Part shown: positions 24,922 through 58,190 of the stretch, piece after piece
Layout of the letters: each line of letters begins with the position of its first letter
Position numbering within the stretch: the first letter of the stretch is position 1
Source: Aestuariivirga sp.
GTDB taxonomy: Bacteria > Pseudomonadota > Alphaproteobacteria > Rhizobiales > Aestuariivirgaceae
DNA: 64,000 nt
Direction of reading: 5' to 3'
Assembly (NCBI GenBank): GCA_043784785.1
Contig: JAYVXY010000132.1
Location: forward strand, 2,931-66,930
Translations under genes and position numbers: made by a program
Notes under the pieces: model-generated
Seen by the model: the letters and a program-made list of their open reading frames with translations, nothing else
The model's database searches: none
What the model was told of the DNA's origin: nothing

Positions 24922-25618
24922 TCCACTCCATCATCCACTTACCCATTTGCCCGTGCCGATTGCGTAAAAGCTCCACCTGAAAAACCGGCTGGCCCCAATT
25001 TTCGCCTTGTTGCAATGAAGGCGTAGCGCGCACAAGCCAGCGTGTTTCAGCAGTGCTGAAGCTGGGCTCTGCAGCAAAACGCAGCAAAAATGCGGTAACG
25101 GATTTTTGTGCGCAAGCCAGTGTCAAACGCCTGCTCGCCGTCATATCAAGATTTTTTGGACGACCGGGAATCTCGATGACCACTGCACCAAGAGCAGCAC
25201 AGGAGAGCGCATCATTGGCAGCGCGCAAACCATCATCGGCATTGGCCACGCAAAGCAGCAGCAGGCGCTGCGGCTCAAAGCCCAATTCAACAAGGCCAGC
25301 AGCAGAAAGTGAAGCAAATTCGTTGATCGAAAAATCTTGCGCTATCCACAATACATGCTTGGTTTCAGCCACGCGCATAACGAGTCCTGCTGTGAAACCC
25401 GTGGCGGCGGTTTCGTGGCCAATAGATGCGAACACTTCATGCAAACATCCGCGTTCAAGCCCTCCATTCAGGCATAAATCGGCAAGGGCATGTCCAAGCG
25501 GAGCGCGGGTCGCAATTTTCTCAAGTCCTGGTTTTGCGAGAACCGCCCGAAGAGCGGTTAAGCGATCACGTATGGATCGCAGATCTACCGGCTGTGAAAA
25601 GTGAAGGGTTGATTGCAT
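24830..25618 (-). CDS. imuA: RecA-like mutasome protein ImuA
   Basis: GGLERGCLHE, SRRLTLA, AETRWLVRA, ELLRNRHG; first gene of the imu cassette; start placed at ATG 25618 because the ORF-track start lies inside the LexA box. Confidence 0.88.
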   Translation of the reverse strand: MQSTLHFSQPVDLRSIRDRLTALRAVLAKPGLEKIATRAPLGHALADLCLNGGLERGCLHEVFASIGHETAATGFTAGLVMRVAETKHVLWIAQDFSINEFASLSAAGLVELGFEPQRLLLLCVANADDGLRAANDALSCAALGAVVIEIPGRPKNLDMTASRRLTLACAQKSVTAFLLRFAAEPSFSTAETRWLVRATPSLQQGENWGQPVFQVELLRNRHGQMGKWMMEWSGDERIFKTPGTINETVKAHRGLVVSKAFD

Positions 25619-25630
25619 AGTGGCATGCAA

Positions 25631-25645
25631 GAACAAAACTAGAAC
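25631..25645. promoter_or_regulatory. Alphaproteobacterial LexA (SOS) box
   Basis: GAACAAAACTAGAAC = GAAC-N7-GAAC, 13 bp upstream of the proposed imuA start. Confidence 0.88.
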
Positions 25646-32521: not shown

Positions 32522-33432
32522 TCCAGTCTTGTATCGCGGTAGACTTTCATCACGAATGAAAGTGAAACCAGCAGCGACAGCAATGTGACGACAAGTGAAA
32601 GCGCCATGCCATAAGAAAAATTGAGATTCTGAAATGTCTCGAGATAGATTTGCACGAGTATTGGCCTGGTGTCGTGGCTTGCACCATTCATCACCCAGGC
32701 CTCTTCAAACAGGTTGAAGGCTTGCACGATGGATTGGGTCATGGCGATGGCAATCGAACTGCGGATCAATGGCAATGTAATAAAGAAGAATGAGTGCGTG
32801 GCACTTGCCCCATCCATGCGCGAAGCATCGCGCAATTCTTGCGGAATGCCTTGCAGTGCCGCCAGAATGATAACGATCGTCAGTGGCATCATGCGCCAGA
32901 CATGCACGACCAAAACCATGGCTATAGAGCTGATGCGGCTGTTGAACCAAAGATGATTGTCAAAATCAAATCCAAATGATGTCAGCGCGCCATTTAAAAG
33001 GCCCGCACCCGGATTAAAGATCCACAACCACATCACTGAATTTACAACACCTGGCAAGGCCCAAGGCAAAACCACAATAGCCAGTAGCCAGCGTCGGCCA
33101 ACTTGCACGCGGTTTAACAACAAAGCAGCAGCTATTCCAAAAACAGTTTCGGCCGCCACGGCAACGGCAACATAAATTGCCGTGTTAAGCCAAGCTGTTC
33201 CGGTCGCACTATCGACAAACATGGCGGCGTAGTTATCAAGCCCAACAAATGGCGTTCCGGGTTGGGTTGGTTTCACACGGTGCAAACTATCCCACACCGT
33301 CATCAGCAGTGGATAAAACACCAAACTGGCCATGGCCAGGATAATTGGCAAAACTAACATAAATCCTAAAAACGCGTCGGCCTGGGAGCCGACGCGTCCA
33401 TTGGGTTTTGGATTCAATATGACAGTGGTCAC
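32518..33432 (-). CDS. Carbohydrate ABC transporter permease (MalF-like)
   Basis: FVGLDNY, LAALQGIP.EL.DA..MDGA. Confidence 0.93.
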   Translation of the reverse strand: MTTVILNPKPNGRVGSQADAFLGFMLVLPIILAMASLVFYPLLMTVWDSLHRVKPTQPGTPFVGLDNYAAMFVDSATGTAWLNTAIYVAVAVAAETVFGIAAALLLNRVQVGRRWLLAIVVLPWALPGVVNSVMWLWIFNPGAGLLNGALTSFGFDFDNHLWFNSRISSIAMVLVVHVWRMMPLTIVIILAALQGIPQELRDASRMDGASATHSFFFITLPLIRSSIAIAMTQSIVQAFNLFEEAWVMNGASHDTRPILVQIYLETFQNLNFSYGMALSLVVTLLSLLVSLSFVMKVYRDTRLD

Positions 33433-34696
33433 TGCTTCTGGGCAACAGCAGTTTCAGCTGCAATGTTTGCCATTGCTTGATCCAATGTAATCTGTCCCTT
33501 GGCAGCGCTGTTCAAATTGGTGTTCACAGCGCCAGAGAATTGTGGATACCAGGGCGGTGTGCCACCATCAAACAACGCACCAACGGTTGGGGCCTGGCCC
33601 ACCAGCGCATCGCCACTGGGAAGCTTTCCGGATTTGTTAAGATCATTCAACGCTGATGTACGGGTTGGCAAAAAGCCTGCATCAAAGTTCTTGATCTGAT
33701 AATCATGCGATGTCATCCATTTGACGAAGGCAAGGGCTGCCTCTTTGTGTGTCGATGAAGAGGGAATGCCAAGCGCTTCGGGCAAACCATAGCTGCGGGT
33801 TTTGCCATCAACTGTCGGCACCAGAATAGCTTCAAACTGGCCTACAATTTTTGATTTTGTCGCATCGGCAAATTGACCCAGACGTCCTGGCTCACCGCCA
33901 ATCATGATGCTGGTCACGCCTTGGGCAAACATGGTTTCATTGATTTCTGAATCTTTGAGAGAAACTGATGCCGGATCGACCAGTCCATCTTTCAGAAGCT
34001 GTAACTCCATCGCCATGGCCTTATAGCCTGCGCTATCAGGGGCCACAAAAAGCGGCTTCATGTCTTTGTCGAAAAGTTCACCGCCATAAGCCTTCGTCAA
34101 CAAATACCAAGCCGTAGAAGCGCCTTCGCTGGCTGAAAGCGGAAGACCGATTGGATATTTTGAAATGCCTTTGGCTTTGATGGCTTTGGCATCGGCAATC
34201 AGCTCATCGAGTGTCTTTGGTGTTCCGGTTACGCCAGCGTCAGTAACTGCTTGCGGTTGATAATCATGACGCGGAAATCATTTGAATATGGAACGCCGAT
34301 CAGATGACCGTTTGACTGGAAAATGGCTGAAGGTGCCATATCATCAATGGACGCCTTGTCGATTGAACCTTCCAGAGGCTCATACCATCCCGATGCGCCA
34401 AACTGGCCCGTCCAGCTCCAATCCATTTCCGTCACATCGGCAGGTGCCGTGTTGGCGATCAGTGATGTGACAAGCTTGGGGCGAATATCATCCCAACCCA
34501 TGGTCTGGAGGTCGACTTTTATGCCGGTGGCCTTTTCAAAATCGTCGGCCAATGTTGGCGCTTGCGGCGATGGCAGGATGACCGTGATGGTCTGCCCAGC
34601 CAGAGGCTTGGCATCATCGGCAAATGCGATCGTCGCTACACCAAGCGAAAGCGAGGTGCTCAGCGCAAGTGCAAAACTGAAGTTCAATCCGTTCAT
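33429..34696 (-). pseudogene. Sugar ABC solute-binding protein split by a 1-bp deletion near 34244 (or an assembly error)
   Basis: Signal peptide at 34696; frame reads ..NRKQL then LTLA*; adding one base restores ADAGVTGTPKTLDEL...WYLLTKAYGG, continuous with ORF 33429-34103. Confidence 0.85.
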
Positions 34697-34990
34697 GTTT
34701 TCCTCCGTTCAATGGGCAGTGTTGATCCTGCTCTGCGTGTTGATGTCCCAGAAACAATCGTTTTGGATTTGACCAGAATGACTGATTTCATAGAGGTATC
34801 ACTAAAAATCATCACTATCTTGCTGGTTTTTCCATAAATATTCTGATTTTCAAGCGCTGCTTCTTTCATTGATGGCAGTGCGGGCGATGCAAATCATCTG
34901 CAATTATCCAGGTTCAGCTCGTCGAATGGGAACAGTCCTACACCTTCTCCAGATGCCACGGAGCCTTTGACCGAACATGGCAATAAACGA

Positions 34991-35098
34991 CCCTTGGCCG
35001 AGATCGCTGGTGCGTCGGGCCTTGGCGCCAAGGCTTAATTCTCCCGCACCTTCAAGGCGAAGTTTGGAGCTTCCCCACATGAATATCGACAGCCGTAA
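34991..35098 (+). pseudogene. Relic C-terminal HTH of an AraC-family regulator
   Basis: Translates PLAEIAGASGLGAKA*FSRTFKAKFGASPHEYRQP*, matching the AraC signature with an internal TAA at the usual aromatic position. Confidence 0.7.
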
Positions 35099-35240
35099 TA
35101 TGTAAAACCATAAAATCATCATGGCCTCTACATAGAAGAGATCGTAACGGTTGTCAAGCTTTATTTCCTATAACGCTATATTATTTCTTATTTTTGTGCC
35201 TCCGCACGGTCTCGTCGGGCTTTCCAGGTTTGCACCATGG

Positions 35241-35675
35241 TCACTTTGACAAAGCGGGTTGGTGTGTGTGGCTGTTGGCAATCACAGCCGTTGCTTCGAT
35301 CTCCACTTTCGCGCGGTCTTCGACCAGTGCCACCACTTGTACCAAGGCCATGGCCGGATAGTGTTTACCGATGATGTCGCGATAGGCATGGCCGAGTTCG
35401 GTCAGGCTGGCGAGATATTCTTGTTTGTCAGTTACATAGATGGTGAGGCGGACGAGATGTTCAGGCCCGGCACCAGCCTCAGCCAGAACGGCAATGATGT
35501 TCTTAAGCGTCTGGGCGAATTGATCGACAAAGTCATCGCTTTCAAAAACCTGATCGGCATTCCAGCCAACCAGCCCACCGCAAAAAACCATGCGCCCCGT
35601 TGCGGCCACACCATTGGAATAGCCGCGCGTTGGCTTCCAGGATTTAGGATGCAGAAATTGGTGGGGTGAAGTCAT
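35241..35675 (-). CDS. RidA-family protein (abm-cluster type)
   Basis: LHPKSWKPTRGYSNGVAA, HYPAMALVQV..L....AKVEIEATA; start ATG 35675 (the longer ORF-track entry runs in a shadow frame of the acyl-CoA dehydrogenase). Confidence 0.9.
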   Translation of the reverse strand: MTSPHQFLHPKSWKPTRGYSNGVAATGRMVFCGGLVGWNADQVFESDDFVDQFAQTLKNIIAVLAEAGAGPEHLVRLTIYVTDKQEYLASLTELGHAYRDIIGKHYPAMALVQVVALVEDRAKVEIEATAVIANSHTHQPALSK

Positions 35676-35688
35676 GGGCCTATTCCTT

Positions 35689-36825
35689 TTAACCGAGCAC
35701 AGCGCGGGCAATGACGATGCGCTGCACATCCGACGCACCTTCATAAATGCGCAAAGCGCGGATTTCACGGTAAAGACTTTCCACAGCAAAGCCATGGCGC
35801 ACACCATCACCGCCATGCAACTGTACTGCTGCATCGATAATACGCTGCGCCGCTTCCGTGGCGTGGAGCTTGGCCATGGCGGCTTCGCGGCTGATCCGGG
35901 CAGCGCCCATATCACGCGTCCACGCGGCACGATAAATGAGCAGGGCCGAAGTATCAACTTCCAAAGCCATATCGGCGATGTGGCCTTGCACCATTTGCAA
36001 ATCGGCCAGGACAATGCCGCCCACCTTGCGGGATTTAACGCGGGCCAAAGCCTCGTCCAGCGCCCGGCGCGCAAAACCCAAAGCGGCTGCACCAACGGTT
36101 GACCGGAAAACATCGAGCACTGACATGGCCAGCTTAAAGCCTTCGCCGGGCTTGCCGATCATGGCCGCTTCGGGAAGTTCAATGCCATTGAAACGCAAAT
36201 GGGCGAGCGGATGGGGAGCGATCACATCAATGCGGTTGACGATTTCGAGGCCGGGCGTGTTTGCAGGCAGAAGAAAAGCTGAAAGGCCTTTGGCTCCATG
36301 TGCTTCGCCGGTGCGGGCAAAGACAACATAAAGATCAGCGATGCCACCATTCGAGATATAGGTTTTTTCGCCATTCAAAACATAACCGCCCTGTGTACGT
36401 GTGGCACTGGTTGCGATGGCGGCGACATCAGACCCGGAAGCGGGCTCAGTGAGGGCGAAGGCGGAAATGGCCAAGCCCTTGCGGGTTTTATTCAGCCACT
36501 GGCGCTGTGCAGCTGTGCCAAATAAAGAGACAGCACCCATGCCAAGGCCTTGCATGGCGAAGGCGAAATCAGCCAGGCCATCATGACGCGCCAGAGTTTC
36601 ACGGATCAGACACAGCGTGCGCACATCCAGCTTTTCGCCCACATCAGCGCCGCTGTGTTTCAGCCATCCATCACGGCCCAGCATTTCAACAAGTGAGCGG
36701 CAAGCAGCATCGACATCACCATGATCAACTGGCAGATGAGCCTTGCACCAAACTTCAAGTGCCTCGGCAAGCTCGCGGTGGCGAGGTTCAAAAAACGGCC
36801 ATGACAGAAAACTTGCATCAGCCAT
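35689..36825 (-). CDS. Acyl-CoA dehydrogenase
   Basis: [48 protein letters not shown]; start ATG 36825. Confidence 0.94.
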
Positions 36826-36826
36826 T

Positions 36827-37639
36827 TCAGTTGCCCTCGAACACAGGTTTTTCCTTGGCCAAAAAAGCCCGGTAAGCGCGCTCGAAATCCTTGGTCTGCA
36901 TGCAAATGGCTTGGGCCTGGGCCTCGGCCTCAATGGCCTGCTCCAGGCCCATGTTCCACTCTTGATTGAGCTGGGTCTTGGTGATGCCGTGGGCAAAAGT
37001 GGGGCCTGAAGCGATACGGGTGGCGAGTTTCATAGACTCCTCTTCAAGCGATGCTGCCTCAAAAATTGAATTCCAGAAGCCCCAGCGCTCGCCTTCAGCA
37101 GCACTCATCACACGGCCCGTGTAAAGTAATTCCGCTGCGCGGCCGTGGCCGACGATGCGAGGCAGAATGGCACAAGCACCCATGTCACAGCCAGCAAGAC
37201 CAACACGCGTAAACAGAAAGGCGGTCTTGGCCTCTGGCGTGGCCAGACGCAGATCAGAGGCCATGGCAATGATGGCCCCCGCCCCCACGCACACGCCATC
37301 AACGGCAGAGATGATCGGCTTTCCGCAATTGATCATGGATTTTACCAAATCACCGGTCATGCGGGTGAAGTTGAGCAGGCTTTTCATGTCGAGTCCGATC
37401 AATGGACCGATTATATCATGCACATCGCCGCCCGAGCAGAAATTGCCGCCACTGGATGCAAAAACAACCACGTCCACATCATCGGCATAAACAAGCGCAC
37501 GAAATGTATCGCGCAGCTCGGCATAGCTTTCAAAAGTCAGCGGGTTCTTGCGCTCTGGGCGATTGAGCCGGACGGTGGCAATGCGGCCTTTTACACTCCA
37601 CAGAAAATGCACGGGCTTGAGACCTGCGAGCTTGCTCAT
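36827..37639 (-). CDS. Enoyl-CoA hydratase-family protein
   Basis: [33 protein letters not shown]; subfamily found in abm/sdg clusters. Confidence 0.92.
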
Positions 37640-38091
37640 TTTGATTTTCCTTTGGGCATACGCATCAGTAACTCTGCCATGCCCTCCAACTCCTCTTTCG
37701 TGACGCTTCCGAAAAGATTGTTCACTTCGCGCTCATGGTCAACGGCCAGTCGCTCAAACAGCTTCAGACCTTTTGCTGTAAAAGCAACAAAGACCGTGCG
37801 ACGATCGGTTTCGGATGCTGTGCGCTTGACCAGCCCTTCGCGCTCAAGTCGATCAACGACAGTAGTGGCATTGCCATTCGACACCAGCAACATGCGGCTC
37901 AACTCCGACATGGTAAGGCCCTCGCGCTTCCGGTAGAGGGCGGCCATCACGTCAAAGCGCGGCAATGTGGTTTGATGGTTCACGCGCAAGAATTCGCGCA
38001 AATGATTTTCTGCAGCGCGGGTGACACCAAGCAGCCTGATCCACATTTTCAGGCGGCGCTTGGAGAGGGGGTCAATGTCTGGGGCGTTCAA
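37636..38091 (-). CDS. MarR-family regulator
   Basis: [35 protein letters not shown] winged helix. Confidence 0.93.
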
Positions 38092-38840
38092 GTGTCAAAC
38101 TCCGGAATCGCAATGGTTTGGCCATTTATACTTTCTGAACCGTCTTCGCAAAGGCGCAAGGCTATGGCTGTCACCTCTTTTGGTTCGATGAGGCGGCCAT
38201 TGGCGTTCTGTGACGCAAGGGCTTTCAGCGCTTCTTCTCTTGAGCGTCCGGTTTTCCGGACGATGGCTTCAGCGGATCGACCCGTCATTTCCGTATTGAG
38301 AAAGCCCGGGCAAATGGCATTTACCGTAATTGGCTTTTTGGCTACCTCCAAAGCGACAGATTTAACAAGGCCAATCACGCCATGTTTGGCCGCTGCATAC
38401 GGGGCGACGTACGAAAACCCTTTAAGGCCCGCAGTGGAAGCAATGGCGATAAGGCGGCCCCAGCCTGGCATTTGGTTCAGGCCCTCACGAAAGGTGAGGA
38501 AGACGCCTGTCAGATTTACCGCCAGCATGGCATTCCATTGATCGAGCGTTGTGCGCGTGAAAGGCGCACTATCGGCAGCGCCAGCATTGGCGATGATAAT
38601 GTCACAAGGGCCTGCAGCAGCGAACATGGCTTTGACGCTGTCTTCGCTTGTTACATCGGCGGCTACGGCCCTGATGTTTTGGTGCTTCGCTGCAACAGCA
38701 TTTAGTGGTTCGGTCCGCCGTCCAGAGATGATGACTTCGGCTCCACGCTGCGCAAAGCCAAGCGCGAGATCAGCACCAAGCCCTGTGCCACCACCAGTGA
38801 TCAATACCCGTCTGCTGTTCAATGTTTGATTTTGCGTCAT
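38088..38840 (-). CDS. Short-chain dehydrogenase/reductase
   Basis: [22 protein letters not shown]. Confidence 0.92.
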
Positions 38841-41122
38841 GCGCGCAGTGTTTCCTGTGCTTTCTGGGCCAGCCTGCGCGCTTGGTCACGGCCTGCCAGA
38901 TAGGGCAATGGCCAATGGGTTGCGTCATCGCCTTGGGCGGCTGCAGCATGCAGTGTCCAATAAGGATCAGTCAAATGAGGTCTTGCCAAGCACACCAGAT
39001 CAGCGCGACCTGCCATAAGGATCGAGTTCACATGGTCGGTTTCATAAATATTGCCGACAGCCATGGTCGCAAGACCTGCTTGGTTGCGGATGCGGTCTGC
39101 AAATGGGGTTTGGAACATGCGGCCATAGACGGGCTTGGCCTCATTTGACGTTTGGCCAGCCGAGACGTCGATGATGTCGGCGCCAGCTTCGGCAAACATG
39201 CGCGCAATTAAAACTGCTTCTTCTGGTGTAACACCATTGTGGCCAACCCAGTCATTGGCGGATATGCGCACAGACATGGGCCGCTCAGTGCCCCATGCAT
39301 CTCGCATCGCACCGAACACTTCCAGCGGATAGCGCATGCGGTTTTCCAAACTGCCACCATATTCGTCGCTGCGAATGTTTGAGATGGGTGAGATGAAGGA
39401 TGAAATCAAATAGCCATGTGCTGCATGAAGTTCGACCATATCAAAACCGCAACGCGATGCCATTTCGGTAGCGCTCACAAATTGCGCCTTCACGAGGTTC
39501 ATGTCGTTGTGGTCCATAGCTTTGGGCATTTGATTGTTGAATGACCATGGAATTGCGGAGGCCGACATGACTGGCCAATTGCCTTGTGCCAGCGGGGTAT
39601 CGCCCTCCTCCCAACCCAATTGCGTGGAACCCTTGCGGCCCGAGTGGCCGATCTGGCAAGATATCTTGGCTTCGGTTTCACTGTGAACAAAATCAACAAG
39701 GCGCCTCCAACCCGTTTCGTGCGCAGGTGCATAAAGACCCGGGCAACCTGGAGTGATGCGGCCCTCGGGGGAAACGCATGTCATCTCGGTACCGACAAGG
39801 CCAGCACCACCCTTGGCGCGCTCAGCATAATGGATGAAATGCCAATCACCCGGTACACCATCAACGGCCTTGTATTGGGCCATGGGTGAAACCACGACGC
39901 GGTTGATCAATGACATATTGCGCAGTTTGAAGGGCGCGAACATCGGCGCGCGGCCGGCTGTGCCGCCTGCCTGTTTCTGGAACCAGTCTTCCGTTTGCCG
40001 AAGCCATTTGGCATCACGCTGGCGCAAGTTTTCATGGCTGATGCGCTGGCTTCTTGTGAGCAGCGAATAGGCAAATTGTTCGGGCGGCATGTCGAGATAA
40101 CGCTCGACCTGTTCAAACCATTCGAGCGAGTTGCGCGCGGCTGATTGCATGCGCAGCACTTCCACGCGGCGCTCGTCTTGATAACGCTGGAAGGCTTGTT
40201 CCATTGTGGGTTCGGAATGCAGGTAATCAGCCAAGGCGATAGCGGAATCAAATGACAGCCTTGAACCTGAGCCGATTGAAAAATGGGCGGTGGCGGCAGA
40301 GTCTCCCATAAGCACTACGTTCTTGTGATACCAGTGCTCACAAATAACCCGCGGAAACTGCATCCACACAGCCGAGCCGCGCAGGTGAGCAGCATTGGAC
40401 ATGAGGTTATGGCCGCCCAAATGTTTGGCAAAAATGCGTTCGCAAGTCGCCACAGTTTCTTCCTTCGACATATCTTGGAAGCCCCAGCGATCCCAGGTTT
40501 CGGGCAGGCATTCAACGATAAAGGTCGCCGTGTCGGCATCGAATTGATAGATATGGGCCCAGACCCAGCCATGTTCGGTCTTCTCGAAAATGAAAGTGAA
40601 GGCATCATTGAATTTCTGGTGTGTGCCAAGCCATACGAATTTGCAGCGACGGATATCAATATCGGGTTTGAAAGTTTCGGCATATTCTTTGCGCACTATG
40701 GAATTAATGCCGTCGCTGGCCACCACAAGGTCGTAGTCTTTGCGATAATCTTCGGCGGACTTGAACTCGGTTTCGAAGCGCAATTCCACGCCCAGTTCGC
40801 GCGCGCGTTCTTGCAGCAGAATGAGCATGGTCTTTCGGCCGATGCCAGCAAAGCCATGGCCGCCGGAAACCGTGCGATGGCCGTTATGGACAACGGCAAT
40901 ATCGTCCCAATAGGCAAAATTGGCCCTGATCGCATTGGTGCTTTTGGGGTCGTTCTTTTGCATGCGGCTCAAAGCTTCATCCGACAGCACCACGCCCCAG
41001 CCAAACGTGTCATTGGCGCGGTTGCGCTCCAAAACAGTGACCTGATGGCTGGCATCACGAAGCTTCATGGAAATAGCGAAATAGAGCCCAGCCGGGCCGC
41101 CTCCGAGACACATAATCTTCAT
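38837..41122 (-). CDS. Bifunctional 2-aminobenzoyl-CoA monooxygenase/reductase (AbmA) / salicylyl-CoA 5-hydroxylase family
   Basis: GGGPAGL flavin monooxygenase domain ([18 protein letters not shown]) fused to an Old Yellow Enzyme domain ([22 protein letters not shown]); 761 aa. Confidence 0.92.
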
Positions 41123-41175: not shown

Positions 41176-41205
41176 ATTTCAAGCTTAAAATTTCTAGCTT
41201 GAAAT
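41176..41205. promoter_or_regulatory. Tandem palindromic operators (probable MarR sites) in a divergent promoter
   Basis: TTTCAAGCTTAAAA (41177-41190) and TTTCTAGCTTGAAA (41191-41204); together a perfect 10-bp inverted repeat ATTTCAAGCT..AGCTTGAAAT. Confidence 0.6.
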
Positions 41206-41224: not shown

Positions 41225-41992
41225 ATGCAGATCATGGATGAACTGATCATGGAGCCGCGCGAAGGATGGGTACGCCTGACCCTGAACCGCCCTTCTGTGC
41301 GCAATGCGCTGAATACTGCACTTCTTGCCATTTTGGCTGATCGGCTTGATGGCCTGGCCGCTGATCCTGAATGTCGGGCTGTACTGATGTGTGGCGCCGG
41401 CGGGAACTTTGCGGCAGGGGCCGATATTGGTGAAATCGAAAACAAGACCAGTGCTGAAGGGGCTGTTGACCCTCGCAAGGCTCTTTGGTCGCGAATTAGG
41501 GCCTTTCCCAAACCTTTGGTGGCAGCGGTGGACGGGTTTTGCCTCGGCGGCGGTTTTGAGCTGGCCTTGATGGCTGATTTTATTGTGATCGGTGGTGATG
41601 CAAAGCTGGGTCTGCCAGAAACCAATCTGGGCCTGATCCCAGGTGCGGGCGGCGGCCAACGCTTGATGGCTCTTGTTGGCCGCGCACGCACGATGCGCAT
41701 GGTGCTGACGGGCGAGATTATTGACGCAGAAACCGCAGAAGCATGGGGCATTGCGGCTTGGCGGATGGAGGGTTCGGCGCTGCCTGAAGCCGAGGCTTTA
41801 TGTGCCAGACTGGCGCGCCGCGCGCCGCTGGCTCTGGTGGCAGCTAAGAAGGCTATTATCGCCGGCGAAGAATCTGCCCTTGCTTTTGCTGGTGAGCGAA
41901 AGGCTTTCGAAGCTTTGCTCGACAGTGCTGATAAGGATGAAGGCATTGCCGCTTTCAAGGCCAGGCGCAAGCCGGAGTTCAAGGGGCAATGA
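41225..41992 (+). CDS. Enoyl-CoA hydratase (PaaF-like)
   Basis: FAAGADI, GFCLGGGFE, PETNLGLIPGAGGGQRL. Confidence 0.9.
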   Translation: MQIMDELIMEPREGWVRLTLNRPSVRNALNTALLAILADRLDGLAADPECRAVLMCGAGGNFAAGADIGEIENKTSAEGAVDPRKALWSRIRAFPKPLVAAVDGFCLGGGFELALMADFIVIGGDAKLGLPETNLGLIPGAGGGQRLMALVGRARTMRMVLTGEIIDAETAEAWGIAAWRMEGSALPEAEALCARLARRAPLALVAAKKAIIAGEESALAFAGERKAFEALLDSADKDEGIAAFKARRKPEFKGQ

Positions 41993-43119
41993 TGGATCCT
42001 CCCATGATTGGCGTTGTTGGTCTTGGCACGATGGGGCTTGGAATTGCGCAGGTTTATGCACAAGCTGGGTTCGTGGTGTTGGCCACAGATGCGCAAGCGG
42101 TGGCGCGGGCTGCGGCAAAGACGAGATTATCAGACACGCTGGCCGAACGTGTAGCGGCGGGCAAGCTTTCAGCAGATGCGCGCGAAGCTACGATGGCAAA
42201 ACTCACCATCGTTGACGACTTAGAAGCCATGGCCCCTGCTGGATTGGTGATTGAAGCGATTGTCGAAACCTTGGAAGCCAAGCGGACTTTGTTTGCCGCG
42301 CTTGAAAAAATCGTAAGCCCCGATGCGGTGTTGGCCAGTAACACTTCCTCTCTTTCCATTGCTGCAATAGCTGAAGGTCTTTCAGTTCCACCGCGTGTGT
42401 TGGGCTTGCATTTTTTCAATCCGGCCCCGGTCATGAAACTCGTTGAACTGGTGGCCCATGCGGGCACAGGCAGCAGCAGTTTGGCGCGGACACGCAGTGT
42501 AACTGAAGCAGCGGGCAGAACGGTAATTGTTTGTGGTGACCGGCCTGGCTTCATCGTCAATCGCTGTGCGCGGCCATTTTATGGCGAGGCCTTGGCGATG
42601 CTTGAAGAAGGGCGCAAGCCTGCGGATGTCGATGCAGCCATGGTGGCGGCAGGTTATCGCCTGGGGCCGTTTGGGTTGATCGATTTGGTTGGAGCCGATA
42701 TCAATCTGGCAGCAACGCGCGAGCTTTGCGCGGCGATGGGTGGGCATCCGCGTTATCATGTGTTTGATGCGCTCGTGGCGCAAGTTGAAAAAGGCGAGCT
42801 CGGGCGCAAGACTGGTAAAGGTTTTGTGTTTCCGGCAGCGGCAGTTCAAGCGCCTTCTGACGCGCAGGCGATTGCCCTCCGCATTGAGGCGACGTTGGCC
42901 AATGAAGCAGCCAGTCTTTTGGCTGAGGGCAGTGTTGATGAGGCGGGGATCGACACGGCGTTAAAGCTGGGATTGAATTTTCCGCGTGGGCCGTTTCAAT
43001 CGCTGCGCGCCCATGGTCTTGGGCTAATCAAAACCACGCTGGCCGAACTCGAAGACAAAGCACCGCCACATCTTAAAGGGCGCTATATTCTTTCCCCAGA
43101 ATTGGAGGCCATGGCATGA
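41989..43119 (+). CDS. 3-hydroxyacyl-CoA dehydrogenase (PaaH-like, short C-terminal repeat)
   Basis: GLGTMGLG, IEAIVE, SNTSSLSI, GLHFFNPAP, PGFIVNR, GRKTGKGF. Confidence 0.92.
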   Translation: MMDPPMIGVVGLGTMGLGIAQVYAQAGFVVLATDAQAVARAAAKTRLSDTLAERVAAGKLSADAREATMAKLTIVDDLEAMAPAGLVIEAIVETLEAKRTLFAALEKIVSPDAVLASNTSSLSIAAIAEGLSVPPRVLGLHFFNPAPVMKLVELVAHAGTGSSSLARTRSVTEAAGRTVIVCGDRPGFIVNRCARPFYGEALAMLEEGRKPADVDAAMVAAGYRLGPFGLIDLVGADINLAATRELCAAMGGHPRYHVFDALVAQVEKGELGRKTGKGFVFPAAAVQAPSDAQAIALRIEATLANEAASLLAEGSVDEAGIDTALKLGLNFPRGPFQSLRAHGLGLIKTTLAELEDKAPPHLKGRYILSPELEAMA

Positions 43120-44294
43120 CCGATGTATTTATCTGCCGAAGCAAGCGTACAGCAATTGGCAGCCACGCAGGCGCTCTTGCCATGGTGCGGCCCGATGATA
43201 TGGCAGCGCTGGTTATCGATGCGGTTCTGGAAGGTCTCGATCTTCCCATTGACGAGGTGTTTTTCGGTTGTGCCAATCAGGCGGGCGAGGATAATCGCAA
43301 TGTGGCGCGCATGGCGGTACTGTTGTCACGGCTGGATGAAAATGTTCCAGCGCTGACAGTGAACCGGCTTTGCGCCAGTGGGCTTGATGCGGTGATAATT
43401 GGTGCACGCGCTATTGCCAGTGGCGCTGCAGAAGTGGTCGTGGCAGGCGGAGTTGAAAGCATGAGTCGCGCGCCGTTTGTGATGCCAAAGGCCGAGAGCG
43501 CCTTTTCGCGCAAAGCCGAAATTCATGACACCACGATTGGCTGGCGCTTTGCTCATGCGCGAATTGCTGCCACCTATGGCATTGAATCGATGCCGGAGAC
43601 GGCTGAGAATGTGGCGCTTGAATTTTCGATCTCGCGGGTTGATCAGGATGAATACGCTCTGCGCAGCCAGCAGCGTTATGATGCCAGCTGGCATGAGCTT
43701 GATATTGTGCCAGTAACGATCCCTGCCCGCAAAGGGGAACCGGTGATCGTCAAGACGGATGAACATCCCCGCAGCACATCGCTTGCGAAACTGAACGCAT
43801 TGCCAACGCCCTTCCGCAAAGGTGGCTCAGTGACGGCGGGTAATGCTTCGGGTGTAAATGATGGGGCCGCTGCTGTGCTTCTGGCCTCGGCGGCTGCGGT
43901 GAAGCGTTATGGTTTAACTCCGCTGGCCCGCATGGGGGCCTCCGCAAGTGCCGGTGTTGCTCCACGTTTGATGGGCATTGGCCCAATTGCAGCGGTTGGA
44001 AAACTCGGCAAACTTGCGGGGCTTATGCCCAAAGACTTTGACGTGATTGAACTTAATGAGGCTTTTGCAGCGCAAGTGTTGGCCTGCACCCGGGCTTGGG
44101 GTTTGGCGGATGATTCGGCCCATGTGAACGCCAAGGGCGGTGGCATTAGCTTAGGCCATCCGCTTGGCATGTCAGGTGCGCGGATTGCTGGTGCAGCGGC
44201 ACGCAGACTTCATGAAACAGATGGCCGGAATGCCTTGGTGACCATGTGCGTGGGCGTTGGCCAGGGCGTGGCCTTGGCGCTGCACAGGCCTTAA
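43116..44294 (+). CDS. pcaF: 3-oxoadipyl-CoA thiolase (PcaF/PaaJ-like)
   Basis: GCANQAGEDNRNVARM, NRLCASG, IHDTTIGWRF, NEAFA, GHPLGMSG, CVGVGQG. Confidence 0.88.
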   Translation: MTDVFICRSKRTAIGSHAGALAMVRPDDMAALVIDAVLEGLDLPIDEVFFGCANQAGEDNRNVARMAVLLSRLDENVPALTVNRLCASGLDAVIIGARAIASGAAEVVVAGGVESMSRAPFVMPKAESAFSRKAEIHDTTIGWRFAHARIAATYGIESMPETAENVALEFSISRVDQDEYALRSQQRYDASWHELDIVPVTIPARKGEPVIVKTDEHPRSTSLAKLNALPTPFRKGGSVTAGNASGVNDGAAAVLLASAAAVKRYGLTPLARMGASASAGVAPRLMGIGPIAAVGKLGKLAGLMPKDFDVIELNEAFAAQVLACTRAWGLADDSAHVNAKGGGISLGHPLGMSGARIAGAAARRLHETDGRNALVTMCVGVGQGVALALHRP

Positions 44295-45091
44295 GCCTGC
44301 AACCAGTTCTCGTCAGGTTCCGGCAGGGGAATAGCGGCAATGAGAGCTTTGGTGAAATCGCTTTTGGGCGCGCGGAATGTTTCAGCGGTTTCGCCTGCTT
44401 CTACCACTTCACCAGAGCGCATGATGATGATGCGATCACAAATATGACGCACCACGGATAGGTCATGACTGATAAAGGCCAGCGACAAACCAAACTCGGA
44501 GCGAAGGCCCTTGAGCAAATCCAGAACCTGAGCCTGCGTTGAAACATCAAGGCCCGAGACAATTTCGTCGGCCACCACAAAATCTGGTTTCAGCGCAATG
44601 GCGCGGGCTATACCCACACGTTGGCGCTGTCCACCGGAAAGCTGATGTGGATAACGTTGCAATGCCGAGCTGGGCAGGCCAACGCGATCCAAAATAGACG
44701 CGAGTGTCTTTTCCCCAGCTTCAAGTCCATGAAGCTGCATGGCACCCTTTAGTATTCTACCGACAGTGTGGCGCGGGTTGAGCGAGGATTGAGGATCCTG
44801 AAATATCATCTGCATCCGGCGGCGCAGGGGCTTCATTTGGGCATGCGGCAGATGGGTGATGTCTGTGCCGTCAAAACTCAGGTGGCCTTCAGTCGGTTCA
44901 TAGAGCCTGAGAAGCGTGCGGCCCAGCGAGGTTTTGCCTGATCCTGATTCTCCGACTATCCCTACCGTCTCGCCCCGCGCCACGCTGATTGAAACATTTT
45001 TGAGAATGCGCAATGTCCGGCGCTTGCCGAACAACACATGATGGCCCATGTCGGGCACGTCGAGGCACAGGTTTTTGGCTTCAATCAACAT
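44291..45091 (-). CDS. Peptide/nickel-type ABC ATPase (DppF-like)
   Basis: GESGSGKT, FQDPQSSLNP, LSGGQRQR. Confidence 0.93.
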   Translation of the reverse strand: MLIEAKNLCLDVPDMGHHVLFGKRRTLRILKNVSISVARGETVGIVGESGSGKTSLGRTLLRLYEPTEGHLSFDGTDITHLPHAQMKPLRRRMQMIFQDPQSSLNPRHTVGRILKGAMQLHGLEAGEKTLASILDRVGLPSSALQRYPHQLSGGQRQRVGIARAIALKPDFVVADEIVSGLDVSTQAQVLDLLKGLRSEFGLSLAFISHDLSVVRHICDRIIIMRSGEVVEAGETAETFRAPKSDFTKALIAAIPLPEPDENWLQA

Positions 45092-45936
45092 CAGGCCGAA
45101 ATCTCCCGCTTCAATTGTGCGATCAAAGATTCTGGCACCGGTTTCAAACTTTGCTCTGGGCGATCATAGCGCGGGTTGGCCGCGAGCAGGGCCTTGGTAT
45201 AGGCGTGGACGGGATTGCGCAGAACATCAGCAGTGTTGCCCTGCTCCATGACTTTGCCACCATAGAGCACCGTCATGCGATCACAGATTTGTGCGACCAC
45301 GCCTAGGTCATGGGTGACGAAGAGAAGTGTCGTTCCATGATTGCGCTGCAGCTGTCGTATGAGGCGCAGCACTTGTTTTTGCACCGTCACATCAAGTGCT
45401 GTTGTCGGCTCATCGGCGATGATCACTTGCGGGTTAAGCGAAAAGGCTTGGGCGATCAACACACGCTGGCGCATGCCGCCTGAAAGTTCATGCGGATAGC
45501 TTTTTAGAACGCGTTGTGGATCACGGATGTGAACATCGTTCAAAAGGTCCAATGCCCGATCAAAGGCGGCGGCGCGGGTAAGCCCCGCCCGCAGGCGAAG
45601 ACCATCTGTCAATTGGTCACCAATGCGGCGCGAGGGATTGAGGGAGGTCAGCGGGTCTTGCGGGATCAAGGCAATGCGAACGCCCAGCAATTCGCGCCTG
45701 CGCGCCGGGGTAAGGCTGAGGAGGTTTTCATCCTCAAACAGAATTTCGCCATTGGTGATTTGAATGGCATCAGGCAGAATGCCGAGAACCGCTTTGGCGA
45801 TGGTTGACTTTCCCGCACCACTTTCGCCGACCAGTGCCATGGCTTCGCCTGTATTCACGGTGAGTGAAACATCGCGCAAGATCGGGCCGATGCCGGAAGA
45901 GGCCGAGAGGTGGCGGATGTTAATGACCGGGCTCAT
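45091..45936 (-). CDS. Peptide/nickel-type ABC ATPase (DppD-like)
   Basis: GESGAGKS, LSGGMRQR, DEPTTALD; start ATG 45936 overlaps the permease stop. Confidence 0.93.
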   Translation of the reverse strand: MSPVINIRHLSASSGIGPILRDVSLTVNTGEAMALVGESGAGKSTIAKAVLGILPDAIQITNGEILFEDENLLSLTPARRRELLGVRIALIPQDPLTSLNPSRRIGDQLTDGLRLRAGLTRAAAFDRALDLLNDVHIRDPQRVLKSYPHELSGGMRQRVLIAQAFSLNPQVIIADEPTTALDVTVQKQVLRLIRQLQRNHGTTLLFVTHDLGVVAQICDRMTVLYGGKVMEQGNTADVLRNPVHAYTKALLAANPRYDRPEQSLKPVPESLIAQLKREISA

Positions 45937-46748
45937 CGTTTCAACACAGGATCGAGCCATTGGCGCAACCCATCTCCCAACTGATTGAAGGCCAGCACAG
46001 TGAGGAACAAAGCTCCAAGCGGAAAAACCAAAACCCACCACGCTTGATAGATGATCTGCCGTCCCTCGGCGATCATGCCGCCCCAGGTCGGCGTGTCAGT
46101 CGAAACAGAGAGGCCAACGTAAGACAAGATTGCCTCAACAATTACGGCAATGCCCATTTCAAGTGACAAGAGTACCAATACGACAGGCAAGACATTCGGC
46201 AAGATTTCGCGGAACAGAATGGCGCCGCGGCCCATGCCGATGGCCGTTGCGGCTTCGACATATTCGAGCTTGGCCTGTTGTTGAGCCTCAGCGCGGACAA
46301 CGCGGGCAAAGCGGGTCCAGTCAATCACTACAATAGCAACGATGACCGAGTGAAGGCCTGAGCCCAGTACTGCTACGAGCAGAATGGACAGCAACACCGG
46401 CGGAAATGCCATCCAGATATCAATCAGGCGTGAAATAACCACCTCCCACCAGCCGCCTAAATAACCGGCCAGCAGACCCAGCATTGTTCCGAGCAGGCCT
46501 GCCAAAATACTGGCCACGAAGGCCACCGTCAGCGCGATGCGACTTGCATAAATCAGGCGGGACAGCACATCGCGGCCGAGGCTATCGGTTCCAAGATAAT
46601 GGCCGGGCTCCTGCATCGGTGGGGCCGTTGCTGTCAGCAGGTCTTGTTCCAGGGGATTGAAGGGGGCCAGCCAATAGGCAAAAAATGCAGCAATAAGCAA
46701 AACCAAGATGAAGCCGCCACCGAGTGTTATGCGCAAATCCCTAAGCAT
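45933..46748 (-). CDS. Dpp-type ABC permease (DppC-like)
   Basis: HYLGTDSLGRDVLSRL, ARVVRAE, PTWGGMI. Confidence 0.93.
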   Translation of the reverse strand: MLRDLRITLGGGFILVLLIAAFFAYWLAPFNPLEQDLLTATAPPMQEPGHYLGTDSLGRDVLSRLIYASRIALTVAFVASILAGLLGTMLGLLAGYLGGWWEVVISRLIDIWMAFPPVLLSILLVAVLGSGLHSVIVAIVVIDWTRFARVVRAEAQQQAKLEYVEAATAIGMGRGAILFREILPNVLPVVLVLLSLEMGIAVIVEAILSYVGLSVSTDTPTWGGMIAEGRQIIYQAWWVLVFPLGALFLTVLAFNQLGDGLRQWLDPVLKR

Positions 46749-47748
46749 GGCGCAGCCTCGGGTTCAGCCATGCTGTCATGGTATCAACAATCATGTTCAC
46801 CAGAATAAAAAGTGCGCCAAAGGTGAGAACCAAGCCTTGGATCAATGGCAGATCACGGTTGATTACTGCGTCGATGGCAAGGTTGCCAATGCCGGGATAA
46901 GAGAAGATGCGCTCGGTTATGACTGTGCCACCAATCAGGAATGTGAACTGCACTCCGGTCAGCGCCAAGGCAGGCATGGCGGCATTGCGCAAGGCTTCCT
47001 GCAACAGAATACGCAAGTTCGAAAGACCCTTGATGCGCGCCAGCACAATATAGTCCTGTACCATCACATCCATCATCGCATTTTTGAGAACCCGGCCGAT
47101 CACGGCTGCAAGCGGAAACGACATGGTAAGGGCTGGCAACATCATGTGCTTCAACACATCCCAGACAAATCCGAAATGGCCGCGCAGCAGGCCTTCGACA
47201 ATGTAAAATTGGGTATAGAGTTCAGCGTCGATCGAGGGATCGCTGCGCCCCGATATCGGCAGAATTGGCAGAACCACACCAAGCACCAGTACAAAGGTGA
47301 GGCCCCAGATAAAATCTGGCACCGCCAGCATCAGGCCGTTGAAGTTGTCAATGAATTTTTCCAGTGCTGTACCGCGCCAGGCAGTTGAAACAAGAGCGAT
47401 ACATGTGCCCCAGACAACAGCAAGGCAGAGTGCGAAAATCGCCAGTTCAAGTGTTGCCGGCAAGCGCTGGAGAATGACGGTCAGGACATTTTGCTTCAAA
47501 GAAATCGACGTGCCAAAATTGCCCAGCAGCACCTGGCCGAACCATACCAGGAACTGCTGGTAGATTGGCAGATCAAGCCCATAATGGGCGCGAAGGGCTG
47601 CAATGTCTGCGACCGTGGCACCGGGCGAAATCATCATGGCAATGGGATCGCCCGGCACCACGCGCACCAGCACAAACACAATCACCATCACACCCAAAAG
47701 GGTGATGATGGCGGAAACGGCGCGCGAGATGATCAGTTTAATCGACAT
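46741..47748 (-). CDS. Dpp-type ABC permease (DppB-like)
   Basis: PGDP, RLPATLEL, ARIKGL, TERIFSYPGIG, RDLPLIQG. Confidence 0.93.
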   Translation of the reverse strand: MSIKLIISRAVSAIITLLGVMVIVFVLVRVVPGDPIAMMISPGATVADIAALRAHYGLDLPIYQQFLVWFGQVLLGNFGTSISLKQNVLTVILQRLPATLELAIFALCLAVVWGTCIALVSTAWRGTALEKFIDNFNGLMLAVPDFIWGLTFVLVLGVVLPILPISGRSDPSIDAELYTQFYIVEGLLRGHFGFVWDVLKHMMLPALTMSFPLAAVIGRVLKNAMMDVMVQDYIVLARIKGLSNLRILLQEALRNAAMPALALTGVQFTFLIGGTVITERIFSYPGIGNLAIDAVINRDLPLIQGLVLTFGALFILVNMIVDTMTAWLNPRLRHA

Positions 47749-47756
47749 GATAAGTT

Positions 47757-47783
47757 AGCCTCTCCGACAGGGCCGGAGAGGCT
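47757..47783. other. Intercistronic stem-loop after the binding-protein gene (probable mRNA-stabilising or attenuating hairpin)
   Basis: Perfect 10-bp stem AGCCTCTCCG / CGGAGAGGCT with 7-nt loop. Confidence 0.6.
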
Positions 47784-47804
47784 TTTCCTTGCATAGTGTA
47801 TAAG

Positions 47805-49337: not shown

Positions 49338-49610
49338 TTGTTTCTCCCTGATTGCCTGCGCTTGGCTCGCGCCGGATTGTTTCACATATCAAACACATTT
49401 TGAGAAACATTCAAGTGCATTTTTTTTGATTTCGTCTGAATATGACGTTGCCCTTACCGAATTTCGTGCGGCACTGCACCATAAGACGGATATTACTTGA
49501 TCAAATGCATAGAATGAGCAAGAGTTTGGTTGGTTTCATTTGCTGTCATTGACGATGGTACAAGACTATTATATGATTTTGCATGTAATTATGAGCACAA
49601 GGTAAGACCC

Positions 49611-55392: not shown

Positions 55393-55404
55393 CGTGGTTA
55401 TGCC

Positions 55405-56232: not shown

Positions 56233-56388
56233 GGTTTCCTCGCCTTGTTGTTTTATGCCCAGCTGGTTCGCTGCCTGAGCTTTTGTGAGAGACTATTGCA
56301 ATCCCATGAATTTTCAAGTTTCAATTTCAACTAAATCCACTGAATTTTGACATGACAGCCGCTATTGCATGATTTTGCAAGGACTGGA

Positions 56389-57972: not shown

Positions 57973-58190
57973 GGCAAACTCCGGCATGGCGAACTCCTGC
58001 CTTTTTGTTCTTTAGCAACGCGGTCATCAGCCGTAAACGTCTATCGCATTTGCATGCATATGCATATTTCAACTTTCTATTTCTGATAAATTCAGACATT
58101 TCCTCGCATTACTCTTGTGCAAACAGATTTTTCATATTTAAAATAAATTGCCGATAGGCGCTCATAATAAAACATGGAGGAACGACACAA

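Follow-up and report, generated by a model that had tools for sequence, protein, structure and literature searches.

The window analysed here, a stretch of 64,000 nucleotides on contig C132 of an Aestuariivirga sp. metagenome-assembled genome (MAG), contains an operon of six minus-strand genes with the following features in and around it:

34697-35240, no strand: the slot that holds an aryl-CoA ligase gene after RidA in the closest ligase-bearing relatives; here 544 bp, ligase remnant absent
35241-35675, minus: RidA/YjgF-family protein (PF01042), final gene of the operon
35689-36825, minus: acyl-CoA dehydrogenase (ACAD), 378 aa, with Acyl-CoA_dh_N, _M and _1 domains
36827-37639, minus: enoyl-CoA hydratase family protein (ECH), PRK08258 type (NF006107, 477.6 bits, cut-off 330)
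37636-38091, minus: MarR1, the regulator within the operon (PF01047/PF12802)
38088-38840, minus: short-chain dehydrogenase (SDR; PF00106, 168.8 bits)
38837-41122, minus: AbmA-type bifunctional aryl-CoA monooxygenase/reductase, 761 aa, with a FAD monooxygenase at its N terminus and an OYE ene-reductase at its C terminus
41177-41204, no strand: two 14-nt near-palindromes that abut each other (TTTCAAGCTTAAAA, TTTCTAGCTTGAAA), in the spacer between the divergent operons
41225-44294, plus: divergent beta-oxidation operon of a PaaF-like ECH, a 3-hydroxyacyl-CoA dehydrogenase (HCDH) and a 3-oxoadipyl-CoA-thiolase-like thiolase (Pfam, NCBIfam)
44291-49385, minus: Dpp/Opp-type ABC importer with two ATPases, two permeases and a family-5 binding protein (Pfam)
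49530-51773, plus: IorA-type thiamine-diphosphate (ThDP)/Fe-S subunit (PF02775, 61.5 bits) of a proposed CoA-ester-forming isatinate oxidoreductase
51770-53302, plus: IorB-type subunit with a POR domain (PF01558) and DUF6537 (PF20169)
53294-53818, minus: MarR2, a second MarR regulator, in the isatin module (Pfam)
53818-55392, minus: FlvA, an amine-oxidase/CrtI-like flavoprotein (PF01593), conserved next to the cyclase
55405-56232, minus: isatin hydrolase, cyclase family (PF04199)
56389-57987, minus: FlvB, a second amine-oxidase/CrtI-like flavoprotein (PF01593, PF01266), conserved
58877-59290, plus: hotdog thioesterase of the island (PF03061)

Profile matches to each gene reproduced the order monooxygenase/reductase-SDR-MarR-ECH-ACAD-RidA given in an earlier note on this DNA. 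All six genes are intact and translationally coupled, with 4-nt overlaps at three junctions (AbmA/SDR, SDR/MarR and MarR/ECH), and a 1-nt gap between ECH and ACAD. Exactly 13 nt, as that note had it, separate the ACAD stop (35689) from the RidA ATG (35675), and an AAGGAA ribosome-binding site is found there. The ACAD start, placed from the translation, is Met58 of a long ORF, 1 nt past the ECH stop. AbmA matches the NF006101 equivalogue over residues 1-758 (1279.5 bits, cut-off 1078) and contains the Pfam domains PF01494 (FAD_binding_3) and PF00724 (Oxidored_FMN); its matches in the PDB are VioD at residues 1-359 and OYEs at residues 392-742. We note that NCBIfam labels this family 'salicylyl-CoA 5-hydroxylase'. 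RidA scores 59.9 bits against TIGR00004, which is under the cut-off. The position of the SDR is kept in most related loci, that of MarR1 is conserved among relatives, and the beta-oxidation operon is divergent from abmA also in the closest relatives. The near-palindromes in the spacer are a candidate MarR1 operator; every other genomic copy of them (at most one mismatch) lies inside an ORF.

IorA has a ThDP motif (GDG-X27-N, residue 510) and C-terminal cysteines at 649, 655, 661, 685, 688, 691 and 701 (CxxCxxC and CP included). As it scores 281.8 bits against TIGR03336 (indolepyruvate oxidoreductase alpha) and does not reach the cut-off of 650.9, we assign it by its sequence to the wider family and not as a certified indolepyruvate enzyme; its orthologues, 55-66% identical, adjoin isatin hydrolase in other genomes. 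IorB scores 657.9 bits against NF006179 (PRK08312 family; cut-off 348), and IorAB is the sole enzyme of its type in the MAG (a single PF20169 match genome-wide). MarR2 is kept between FlvA and IorA in three relatives (L013, L025 and L026). The alignment between the window cyclase and isatin hydrolase B (PDB 4J0N/4M8D) of Labrenzia (Roseibium) aggregata runs from end to end, residues 17-275 matching residues 4-262 of 4J0N_A at 406.7 bits (E = 4.8e-121), which identifies the cyclase, at the level of homology, as a close orthologue of the crystallised enzyme. The genome of R. aggregatum PHM038 has AbmA and the ligase, and no orthologue of the window cyclase or of IorA. We know of no link made between the structural work on this hydrolase and IorAB or a 2-aminobenzoyl-CoA pathway. 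The thioesterase is cut short by an in-frame TAG (59198-59200) at which orthologues have Gln, according to the alignment with the intact orthologues of L009 and L026. IorAB and the operon are separated by 8.4 kb and so are not adjacent, and a different MarR is in charge of IorAB.

A dedicated ligase is absent from the operon, the window and the MAG. The PF00501 search of the contig gave no match, and the window yielded only noise (E >= 0.03) when eight AMP-binding proteins were used as tblastn queries, which upholds the earlier claim that the window lacks an AMP-binding enzyme. The MAG (94.6% complete, 275 contigs) contains seven AMP-binding genes, encoding Acs, an NRPS-like protein, a FadD7-like protein (on C18), a FAAL, one unassigned protein (on C113), an Aas fragment and a PaaK-like protein. 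In the MAG, the benzoate-CoA ligase family TIGR02262 finds at best Acs (207 bits, cut-off 375), the protein nearest to the operon ligase of the relatives shares 28% identity with it (122.6 bits) and is not an orthologue, and none of the seven genes has aromatic/CoA gene context or the operon's operator-like palindrome. The genome search for a benzoate- or anthranilate-CoA ligase, set in advance as a refutation test, thus yielded neither an orthologue nor a co-regulated candidate.

Clusters of this kind usually do include a CoA ligase, as had been claimed. The operon ligases of the relatives are a tight orthologous group: they score at least 870 bits mutually, paralogues reach no more than 160 bits, and the family that fits them best is TIGR02262 (365-372 bits). 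In L010-L018, L025, L027 and L030 the ligase comes after RidA. Set A, made up of the window and 80 loci from close relatives, has the orthologue in 57 of its 61 informative loci; in set B, sampled evenly across the class, about 72 of the 77 AbmA-bearing Alphaproteobacteria have it. The informative ligase-less operons of set A are those of the window, L009, L020 and L026; no ligase orthologue is found in these four genomes with every candidate scored, and all four have IorAB in the same locus. In set B, the orthologue is missing from G000, G387, G173 and G119. The correlation between ligase absence and IorAB linkage that the earlier note had predicted was found in both sets (set A, 4/4 ligase-less versus 8/57 ligase-bearing, one-sided Fisher p = 9e-4; set B, IorB at most 35 kb from AbmA, 3/4 without the orthologue versus 6/72 ligase-bearing, p = 4e-3), with Fisher p-values that overstate the case because related genomes are not independent. 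The AbmA tree requires at least three independent ligase losses; the locus closest to L020, and likewise that closest to L026, is IorAB-linked and retains the ligase. Ligase loss is thus rare and concentrated in IorAB-linked clusters.

G055 (6 contigs, 96% complete) has no ligase homologue at E <= 1e-40 and holds IorBA-FlvA-cyclase, FlvB-ABC and AbmA all within 16 kb. With it counted, nearly all of the few ligase-less genomes have an operon-linked IorAB-type 2-oxoacid oxidoreductase (the window, L009, L020, L026, G387, G173 and G055), and isatin hydrolase is usually present. In G387, cyclase-IorA-IorB abut RidA-TE-ACAD-ECH-MarR-SDR-AbmA. Isatin hydrolase orthologues and AbmA tend to occur together (11/13 genomes versus 71/387, p = 8e-7). 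Most IorAB-linked clusters nevertheless retain the ligase (L013, L025, five Hoeflea loci, G352 and G109), so IorAB is no general replacement for it. The isatin module of G119 includes a different AMP-binding gene, not orthologous to the operon ligase, which implies that unrecognised ligases exist.

Two known clusters for the aerobic 2-aminobenzoyl-CoA pathway, abm in Azoarcus/Aromatoleum evansii and the 'lower pathway' in Arthrobacter sp. Rue61a, have, like the window, a fused FAD-monooxygenase/OYE-reductase acting on an aromatic CoA ester and beta-oxidation-type genes for the alicyclic product (PMC4539516, PMC3534580, PMC6221969), here ECH, ACAD and SDR in the operon and ECH, HCDH and thiolase in the divergent one. 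The window differs in that the ligase is absent from operon and MAG and an IorAB-type oxidoreductase and isatin hydrolase are linked instead. The 2-aminobenzoyl-CoA cluster of Cupriavidus SHE is likewise tied to indole/isatin catabolism: indole is degraded via isatin and isatic acid, and the cluster is required (review, PMC6221969). The iad auxin-degradation locus (Variovorax, Achromobacter, Bradyrhizobium) shares with the window the iorA/iorB homologues iadA/iadB (markers of the locus type), a cyclase-family amidase (IadI) and MarR regulation, and isatin and isatinic acid are intermediates of its pathway (PMC9613470, PMC12633357). Only this IorAB, cyclase and MarR part is common; the iad locus is recognised by the Rieske oxygenase IadCDE and the side-chain-removal genes (IadF ligase, IadG thiolase and IadH dehydrogenase) beside iadA/iadB, and the window falls outside this definition, with no Rieske/ring-hydroxylating (IadCDE-type) or AMP-binding (IadF-type) domain in the 58 Pfam-scanned ORFs of its 62. 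The published iad pathway stops at free anthranilate and gives IadA/IadB no function (PMC9613470, PMC12633357), whereas the window module is joined to a ligase-less AbmA operon. The arylglyoxylate/arylpyruvate oxidoreductases of Aromatoleum use the same ThDP/Fe-S logic to convert aromatic 2-oxo acids to aroyl- or arylacetyl-CoA without a ligase: phenylglyoxylate gives benzoyl-CoA by oxidative decarboxylation, and IorAB turns phenylpyruvate directly into phenylacetyl-CoA (PMC9765128). Those enzymes are described for anaerobic metabolism, whereas the product of the window enzyme would feed an O2-dependent monooxygenase, its substrate would be the amino-substituted isatinate, and its IorA stays below the IOR-alpha equivalogue score.

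We consider it somewhat probable that the operon encodes an aerobic 2-aminobenzoyl-CoA pathway that has lost its ligase and receives the CoA ester from IorAB acting on isatinate. Isatin hydrolase would open isatin to isatinate (2-aminophenylglyoxylate), a 2-oxo acid; IorAB, as a ThDP/Fe-S 2-oxoacid:acceptor oxidoreductase, would convert isatinate and CoA to 2-aminobenzoyl-CoA by oxidative decarboxylation without ATP; AbmA would hydroxylate and reduce this ester; and SDR, ECH, ACAD and RidA, with the divergent ECH/HCDH/thiolase operon, would process and deaminate the alicyclic CoA ester. We propose that this lineage lost the AMP-forming ligase because the pathway's substrate comes in a form other than free anthranilate. 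That IorAB supplies the CoA ester directly, as the earlier note had held, is supported in silico by the ligase absence and the comparative IorAB linkage, which is correlative, and has a chemical precedent in the Aromatoleum reactions. We infer the source of isatin, as we do isatinate as the IorAB substrate; the isatin hydrolase linkage and co-occurrence suggest that AbmA acts on 2-aminobenzoyl-CoA, not salicylyl-CoA. The IorAB-linked clusters that retain the ligase, the AMP-binding gene of G119, the incompleteness of the MAG, and the distance and separate MarR of IorAB all weigh against this pathway, and so do two further points. 2-Oxoacid:ferredoxin oxidoreductases are often oxygen-sensitive and AbmA needs O2; and in Variovorax nine genes (iadC-K2), without iadA/iadB, are enough to convert IAA to anthranilate (PMC12633357), which implies that isatinate can reach free anthranilate without IorAB.

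A ligase may still act on free anthranilate: the adenylating enzyme could be a non-orthologous one encoded elsewhere, or an orthologue could lie in the unassembled part of the genome (roughly 5%). The completeness and fragmentation of the MAG leave room for this, three of its adenylating enzymes have no assigned substrate (L003, which is FadD7-like, L005 and L007), many sampled genomes have a ligase homologue away from AbmA, and the AMP-binding gene in the G119 isatin module is unrelated to the operon ligases. However, within the window's own clade the operon ligases are in cis, the MAG candidates lack the context and operator noted above, and the loss recurs in six other genomes, including 4-contig G173 and 6-contig G055, with every candidate scored; we therefore regard a surviving ligase as rather unlikely. 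If anthranilate were instead activated by a CoA-transferase, isatinate having decayed to it spontaneously or through unspecific enzymes, the accumulation of free anthranilate by iad strains without iadAB would be in keeping, and the acyl-CoA-generating beta-oxidation genes of the window could supply CoA donors. A CoA-transferase domain is nonetheless absent from the 58 scanned ORFs of the window's 62 and from eight scanned ORFs beside the ligase-less operons of L009 and L020, we are aware of no case in which an anthranilate CoA-transferase feeds AbmA, and this route appears very improbable.

It is also conceivable, and in our view improbable, that IorAB uses another 2-oxo acid (indolepyruvate or another arylpyruvate/arylglyoxylate) and that the operon is fed by a different aryl-CoA (e.g. 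salicylyl-CoA) or is unfed and decaying. The family name of AbmA and the truncated thioesterase, a sign of some island decay, fit this, as do genus g28 (G034, G186, G392 and G297), with IorB 7-9 kb from AbmA and no isatin hydrolase, and G381, with cyclase and IorA, in which AbmA was not found. On the other side, the six operon genes are intact and coupled, IorA scores far under the indolepyruvate cut-off, isatinate as the product of the hydrolase is itself a 2-oxo acid, and in L013, L025, G387 and G055 IorA and IorB are co-directional with, and directly after, cyclase-FlvA-MarR2.

IorAB, and by homology IadA/IadB of auxin degraders, might be an oxygen-tolerant isatinate:acceptor oxidoreductase whose product is 2-aminobenzoyl-CoA, a proposal that we see as evenly poised. 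2-Oxoacid oxidoreductases would then gain a new class of physiological substrate, and indole, auxin or isatin could lead aerobes into the 2-aminobenzoyl-CoA pathway at no ATP cost; the ligase would be dispensable, which would explain its repeated independent losses only where IorAB is linked.

Downstream of the 544-bp slot lies an unrelated sugar-transport operon. On the other flank, the same ABC importer as in the window adjoins FlvB and the cyclase in the Hoeflea loci and in G055.

The abm-type operon of the Aestuariivirga sp. metagenome-assembled genome (MAG; 2.9 Mb in 275 contigs, 94.6% complete) consists of six intact genes on the minus strand of the window (35241-41122). It is separated from IorAB, the thiamine-diphosphate/Fe-S 2-oxoacid oxidoreductase of the isatin island, by a divergent gene set and an importer:

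35241-35675 (-), RidA-family protein
35689-36825 (-), acyl-CoA dehydrogenase (ACAD), trimmed to its real start
36827-37639 (-), enoyl-CoA hydratase (ECH) of the PRK08258 type, 477.6 bits (cut-off 330)
37636-38091 (-), MarR regulator
38088-38840 (-), SDR
38837-41122 (-), AbmA, bifunctional aryl-CoA monooxygenase/reductase, 761 aa, N-terminal FAD monooxygenase and C-terminal OYE reductase; NF006101 equivalogue, 1279.5 bits (cut-off 1078)
41225-44294 (divergent from abmA), PaaF-like hydratase, 3-hydroxyacyl-CoA dehydrogenase and 3-oxoadipyl-CoA-thiolase-like thiolase
44291-49385 (-), Dpp-type ABC importer
49530-51773, IorA, with ThDP domain, GDG-X27-N motif and C-terminal Fe-S cysteines
51770-53302, IorB, passing its own family model (657.9 bits vs 348)
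53294-57987 (-), second MarR regulator (MarR2), flavoprotein FlvA, cyclase-family protein, flavoprotein FlvB
beyond FlvB, a VOC protein and then a hotdog thioesterase

The operon genes overlap by 4 nt at three junctions, the ECH/ACAD gap is 1 nt, and ACAD and RidA are separated by exactly 13 nt, with an AAGGAA ribosome-binding site; the gene order and 13-bp spacing described in the earlier note are thus accurate, as read from coordinates, domains and junctions. In the Hyphomicrobiaceae and Aestuariivirga relatives (L009:7656-8438 and L042:1835-2530), MarR directly follows AbmA, without the SDR gene seen in the window. In the isatin island, the cyclase can be aligned over its whole length with isatin hydrolase B, an enzyme of known crystal structure (4J0N; 406.7 bits). 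IorA scores 281.8 bits, far below the 650.9 that would mark it as the alpha subunit of a true indolepyruvate oxidoreductase; IorAB is the sole enzyme of its type in the MAG. The hotdog thioesterase (58877-59290, +) has an in-frame TAG at 59198-59200, which would cost it the last ~29 residues and where the intact orthologues of loci L009 and L026 encode Gln. Elsewhere in the window, 19913-25636 (-) looks like an imuA'-imuB-dnaE2 mutagenesis cassette: it encodes a 1162-aa error-prone polymerase of the DnaE2 type, a 515-aa Y-family protein resembling ImuB, and an ORF of 268 aa without Pfam match.

The operon was said to stand in a window free of AMP-binding enzymes, and this holds: PF00501 has no match on the contig, and tblastn with eight adenylating enzymes gave only noise in the window, including downstream of RidA, where a hidden ligase relic was considered and rejected. 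The slot after RidA spans 544 bp and shows no ligase remnant; an unrelated sugar-transport operon comes next. At 33429-34696 (-), a sugar-type solute-binding protein (SBP_bac_1) is split into an N-terminal ORF (34229-34696) and a C-terminal ORF (33429-34103), either as a frameshifted or broken gene or by assembly error.

Genome-wide, the MAG contains seven AMP-binding genes (acetyl-CoA synthetase Acs, a Pls/PosA-like NRPS, a FadD7-like ligase, a fatty acyl-AMP ligase, one unassigned enzyme, an Aas fragment and a weak PaaK-like protein), and none approaches the benzoate-CoA ligase family (top TIGR02262 score 207 bits, by Acs, against a cut-off of 375). The ligases of the relatives' operons, for which TIGR02262 is the best family (365-372 bits), are very closely related orthologues, scoring 870 bits or more against one another and at most 160 bits against paralogues; their closest match in the MAG is 28% identical. 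The search for a benzoate/anthranilate-CoA ligase therefore found no orthologue in the MAG, in an assembly with about 5% of the genome unassembled. A co-regulated ligase elsewhere in the MAG was also considered. The unassigned adenylating enzymes have as neighbours a gluconolactonase-like protein, an SDR, cytochrome b561 and a ketopantoate-reductase-like protein, with no aromatic or CoA genes beside them. The divergent abmA spacer holds two abutting near-palindromes (41177-41204) that have no intergenic counterpart elsewhere in the assembled genome. In a search across the MAG allowing up to 2 mismatches, other copies with at most 1 mismatch all lie inside ORFs, the perfect copy on contig C226 falls in the first part of the coding sequence for an L,D-transpeptidase, and a copy on contig C51 near the PaaK-like gene (2 mismatches) is one half-site within a coding region. 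There is thus no sign of such a ligase in the assembled genome, and we dropped this lead. A kynureninase route to free anthranilate had no match above cut-off in the MAG either.

Among close relatives, we compared the best 80 AbmA-like loci of at least 599 AbmA loci (66–84% identity to AbmA, almost all Alphaproteobacteria), annotated by phmmer with the window's proteins as queries. Similar clusters do normally include a ligase, as had been claimed: 57 of 61 informative loci (window counted) carry one. Its place is between ACAD and RidA, except in the ligase-bearing loci nearest the window, where it comes directly after RidA. All four ligase-less operons (the window, L009, L020 and L026) have IorAB in the same locus, and the genomes of the latter three contain no ligase orthologue with every candidate scored. 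A CoA-transferase or ligase beside the operons of L009 and L020 was sought and rejected: the eight neighbouring ORFs scanned yielded aminotransferases, one luciferase-like monooxygenase and one enolase-family protein, but neither of the enzymes sought. Among ligase-bearing loci, linkage to IorAB is confined to L013, L025 and the Hoeflea group, conservatively 8 of 57 (L049 and L076 were counted in without an IorAB check), as compared to 4 of 4 ligase-less ones (one-sided Fisher p = 9e-4; Fisher p-values here are indicative only, since related genomes are not independent). To account for the ligase-less state, the AbmA tree requires three or more changes (window plus L009; L020; L026), and the closest relatives of L020 and L026 include the IorAB-linked, ligase-keeping loci L013 and L024, respectively. 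Two Actinomycetota MAGs (L022 and L023, one Ilumatobacteraceae) have AbmA 77-78% identical to the window's that is nested in Rhodobacterales, a tree placement that points to horizontal transfer or binning error.

The proposed correlation between ligase absence and IorAB linkage is positive not only in these relatives but also in an even class sample of 400 genomes, where AbmA occurs in 82 and the 76 with full-length AbmA were tested for ligase, IorB and isatin hydrolase. With only 19 candidates scored per genome, the large ligase search gave false negatives, which we traced (G269, with a ligase in the operon; G297 and G223, with partial copies); we corrected the counts and left G253 out of them. 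When a multi-paralogue family is searched on this scale, calls of absence need such a re-check. Truly without a ligase orthologue are G387, G173, G119 and the MAG itself. In G387, cyclase-IorA-IorB abuts RidA-TE-ACAD-ECH-MarR-SDR-AbmA; in G173 (4 contigs), IorAB lies 27 kb from AbmA; in G119, cyclase and IorAB are on a contig other than AbmA's. The isatin module of G119 (IorA-IorB-MarR-...-cyclase) includes a different AMP-binding gene (L092:4530-6140 on contig C34), non-orthologous to the usual operon ligase, which may be an alternative aryl-CoA ligase and is a caution that unrecognised ligases exist. Of the 4 ligase-less genomes, 3 have IorB no more than 35 kb from AbmA, vs 6 of 72 ligase-bearing ones (p = 4e-3). 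IorB anywhere in the genome was dropped as a discriminator because it is too common (49 of the 76); only physical linkage discriminates. Outside the 76, G055 (6 contigs, 96% complete) packs IorB-IorA-FlvA-cyclase, FlvB-ABC and AbmA into 16 kb and has no ligase homologue at E ≤ 1e-40; the DNA around this minimal supercluster (L098; G055:C4:1019000-1038999) has 44% GC, the genome measures 2.3 Mb, and AbmA stands alone, with no adjoining SDR, MarR, ECH, ACAD or RidA genes. By their contig numbers, both G173 and G055 look like assemblies of isolate quality. Overall, the ligase is missing from about one third of IorAB-linked clusters vs at most 1.5% of unlinked ones, and ligase-less carriers span different families.

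Isatin hydrolase orthologues were found in 13 of the 400 genomes, and 11 of these 13 contain AbmA, as compared to 71 of the other 387 (p = 8e-7). Where contigs allow, isatin hydrolase is 2-5 kb from IorAB (G011, G092, G365, G387, G119, G055, Hoeflea, L013 and L025), with G074 as the clear exception.

The most economical reading is that isatin hydrolase would yield isatinate (2-aminophenylglyoxylate), a 2-oxo acid, which IorAB would convert with CoA to 2-aminobenzoyl-CoA by oxidative decarboxylation, for consumption by AbmA and the beta-oxidation-type enzymes. Where both routes are present, the role of the ligase would be to salvage free anthranilate; it would be dispensable where substrate comes only via isatinate, in keeping with losses that recur in IorAB-linked clusters and nowhere else. 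Chemical precedent comes from Aromatoleum, in which phenylglyoxylate is converted to benzoyl-CoA and an IorAB converts phenylpyruvate to phenylacetyl-CoA directly (PMC9765128), and biological precedent from Cupriavidus SHE, which degrades indole via isatin and isatic acid and requires a 2-aminobenzoyl-CoA cluster (PMC6221969). The earlier suggestion that IorAB supplies the CoA ester directly is supported, not proven, by every available in-silico test, and we lean slightly towards the route operating in this organism. Against it count the NCBIfam name of the AbmA family, which refers to salicylyl-CoA, and the retention of the ligase in most IorAB-linked clusters. IorAB-class enzymes are also often oxygen-sensitive, and AbmA requires O2. 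A further point against it is that in Variovorax, iadC-K2 without the iorA and iorB homologues iadA and iadB is enough to convert IAA to anthranilate (PMC12633357).

The published 2-aminobenzoyl-CoA pathway always begins with an AMP-forming ligase (PMC4539516, PMC3534580), unlike that of the window; IadA and IadB are described only as markers of the auxin-degradation (iad) locus, with no function given (PMC9613470), and our literature search found no paper tying isatin hydrolase to an indolepyruvate-type oxidoreductase. The ligase-less, IorAB-linked arrangement is new relative to the literature, within a known pathway, and what this analysis contributes is that ligase loss was tested explicitly against linkage to IorAB. 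If IorAB does convert isatinate to 2-aminobenzoyl-CoA, the step after isatin hydrolase in bacterial indole/auxin breakdown would be filled, iadA/iadB, marker genes of plant-associated auxin degraders, would gain a function, and an enzyme class usually considered anaerobic would provide an ATP-saving entry to an aerobic aromatic CoA pathway. Ligase-less operons are natural knock-outs that make this directly testable, with their carriers predicted to grow on isatin and not on free anthranilate.

In one genus (g28: G034, G186, G392 and G297; L095), IorB is 7-9 kb from AbmA, the operon order differs (SDR-MarR-ECH-ACAD-AbmA), and no isatin hydrolase orthologue was found, so the association of IorAB with AbmA may reach beyond isatin.
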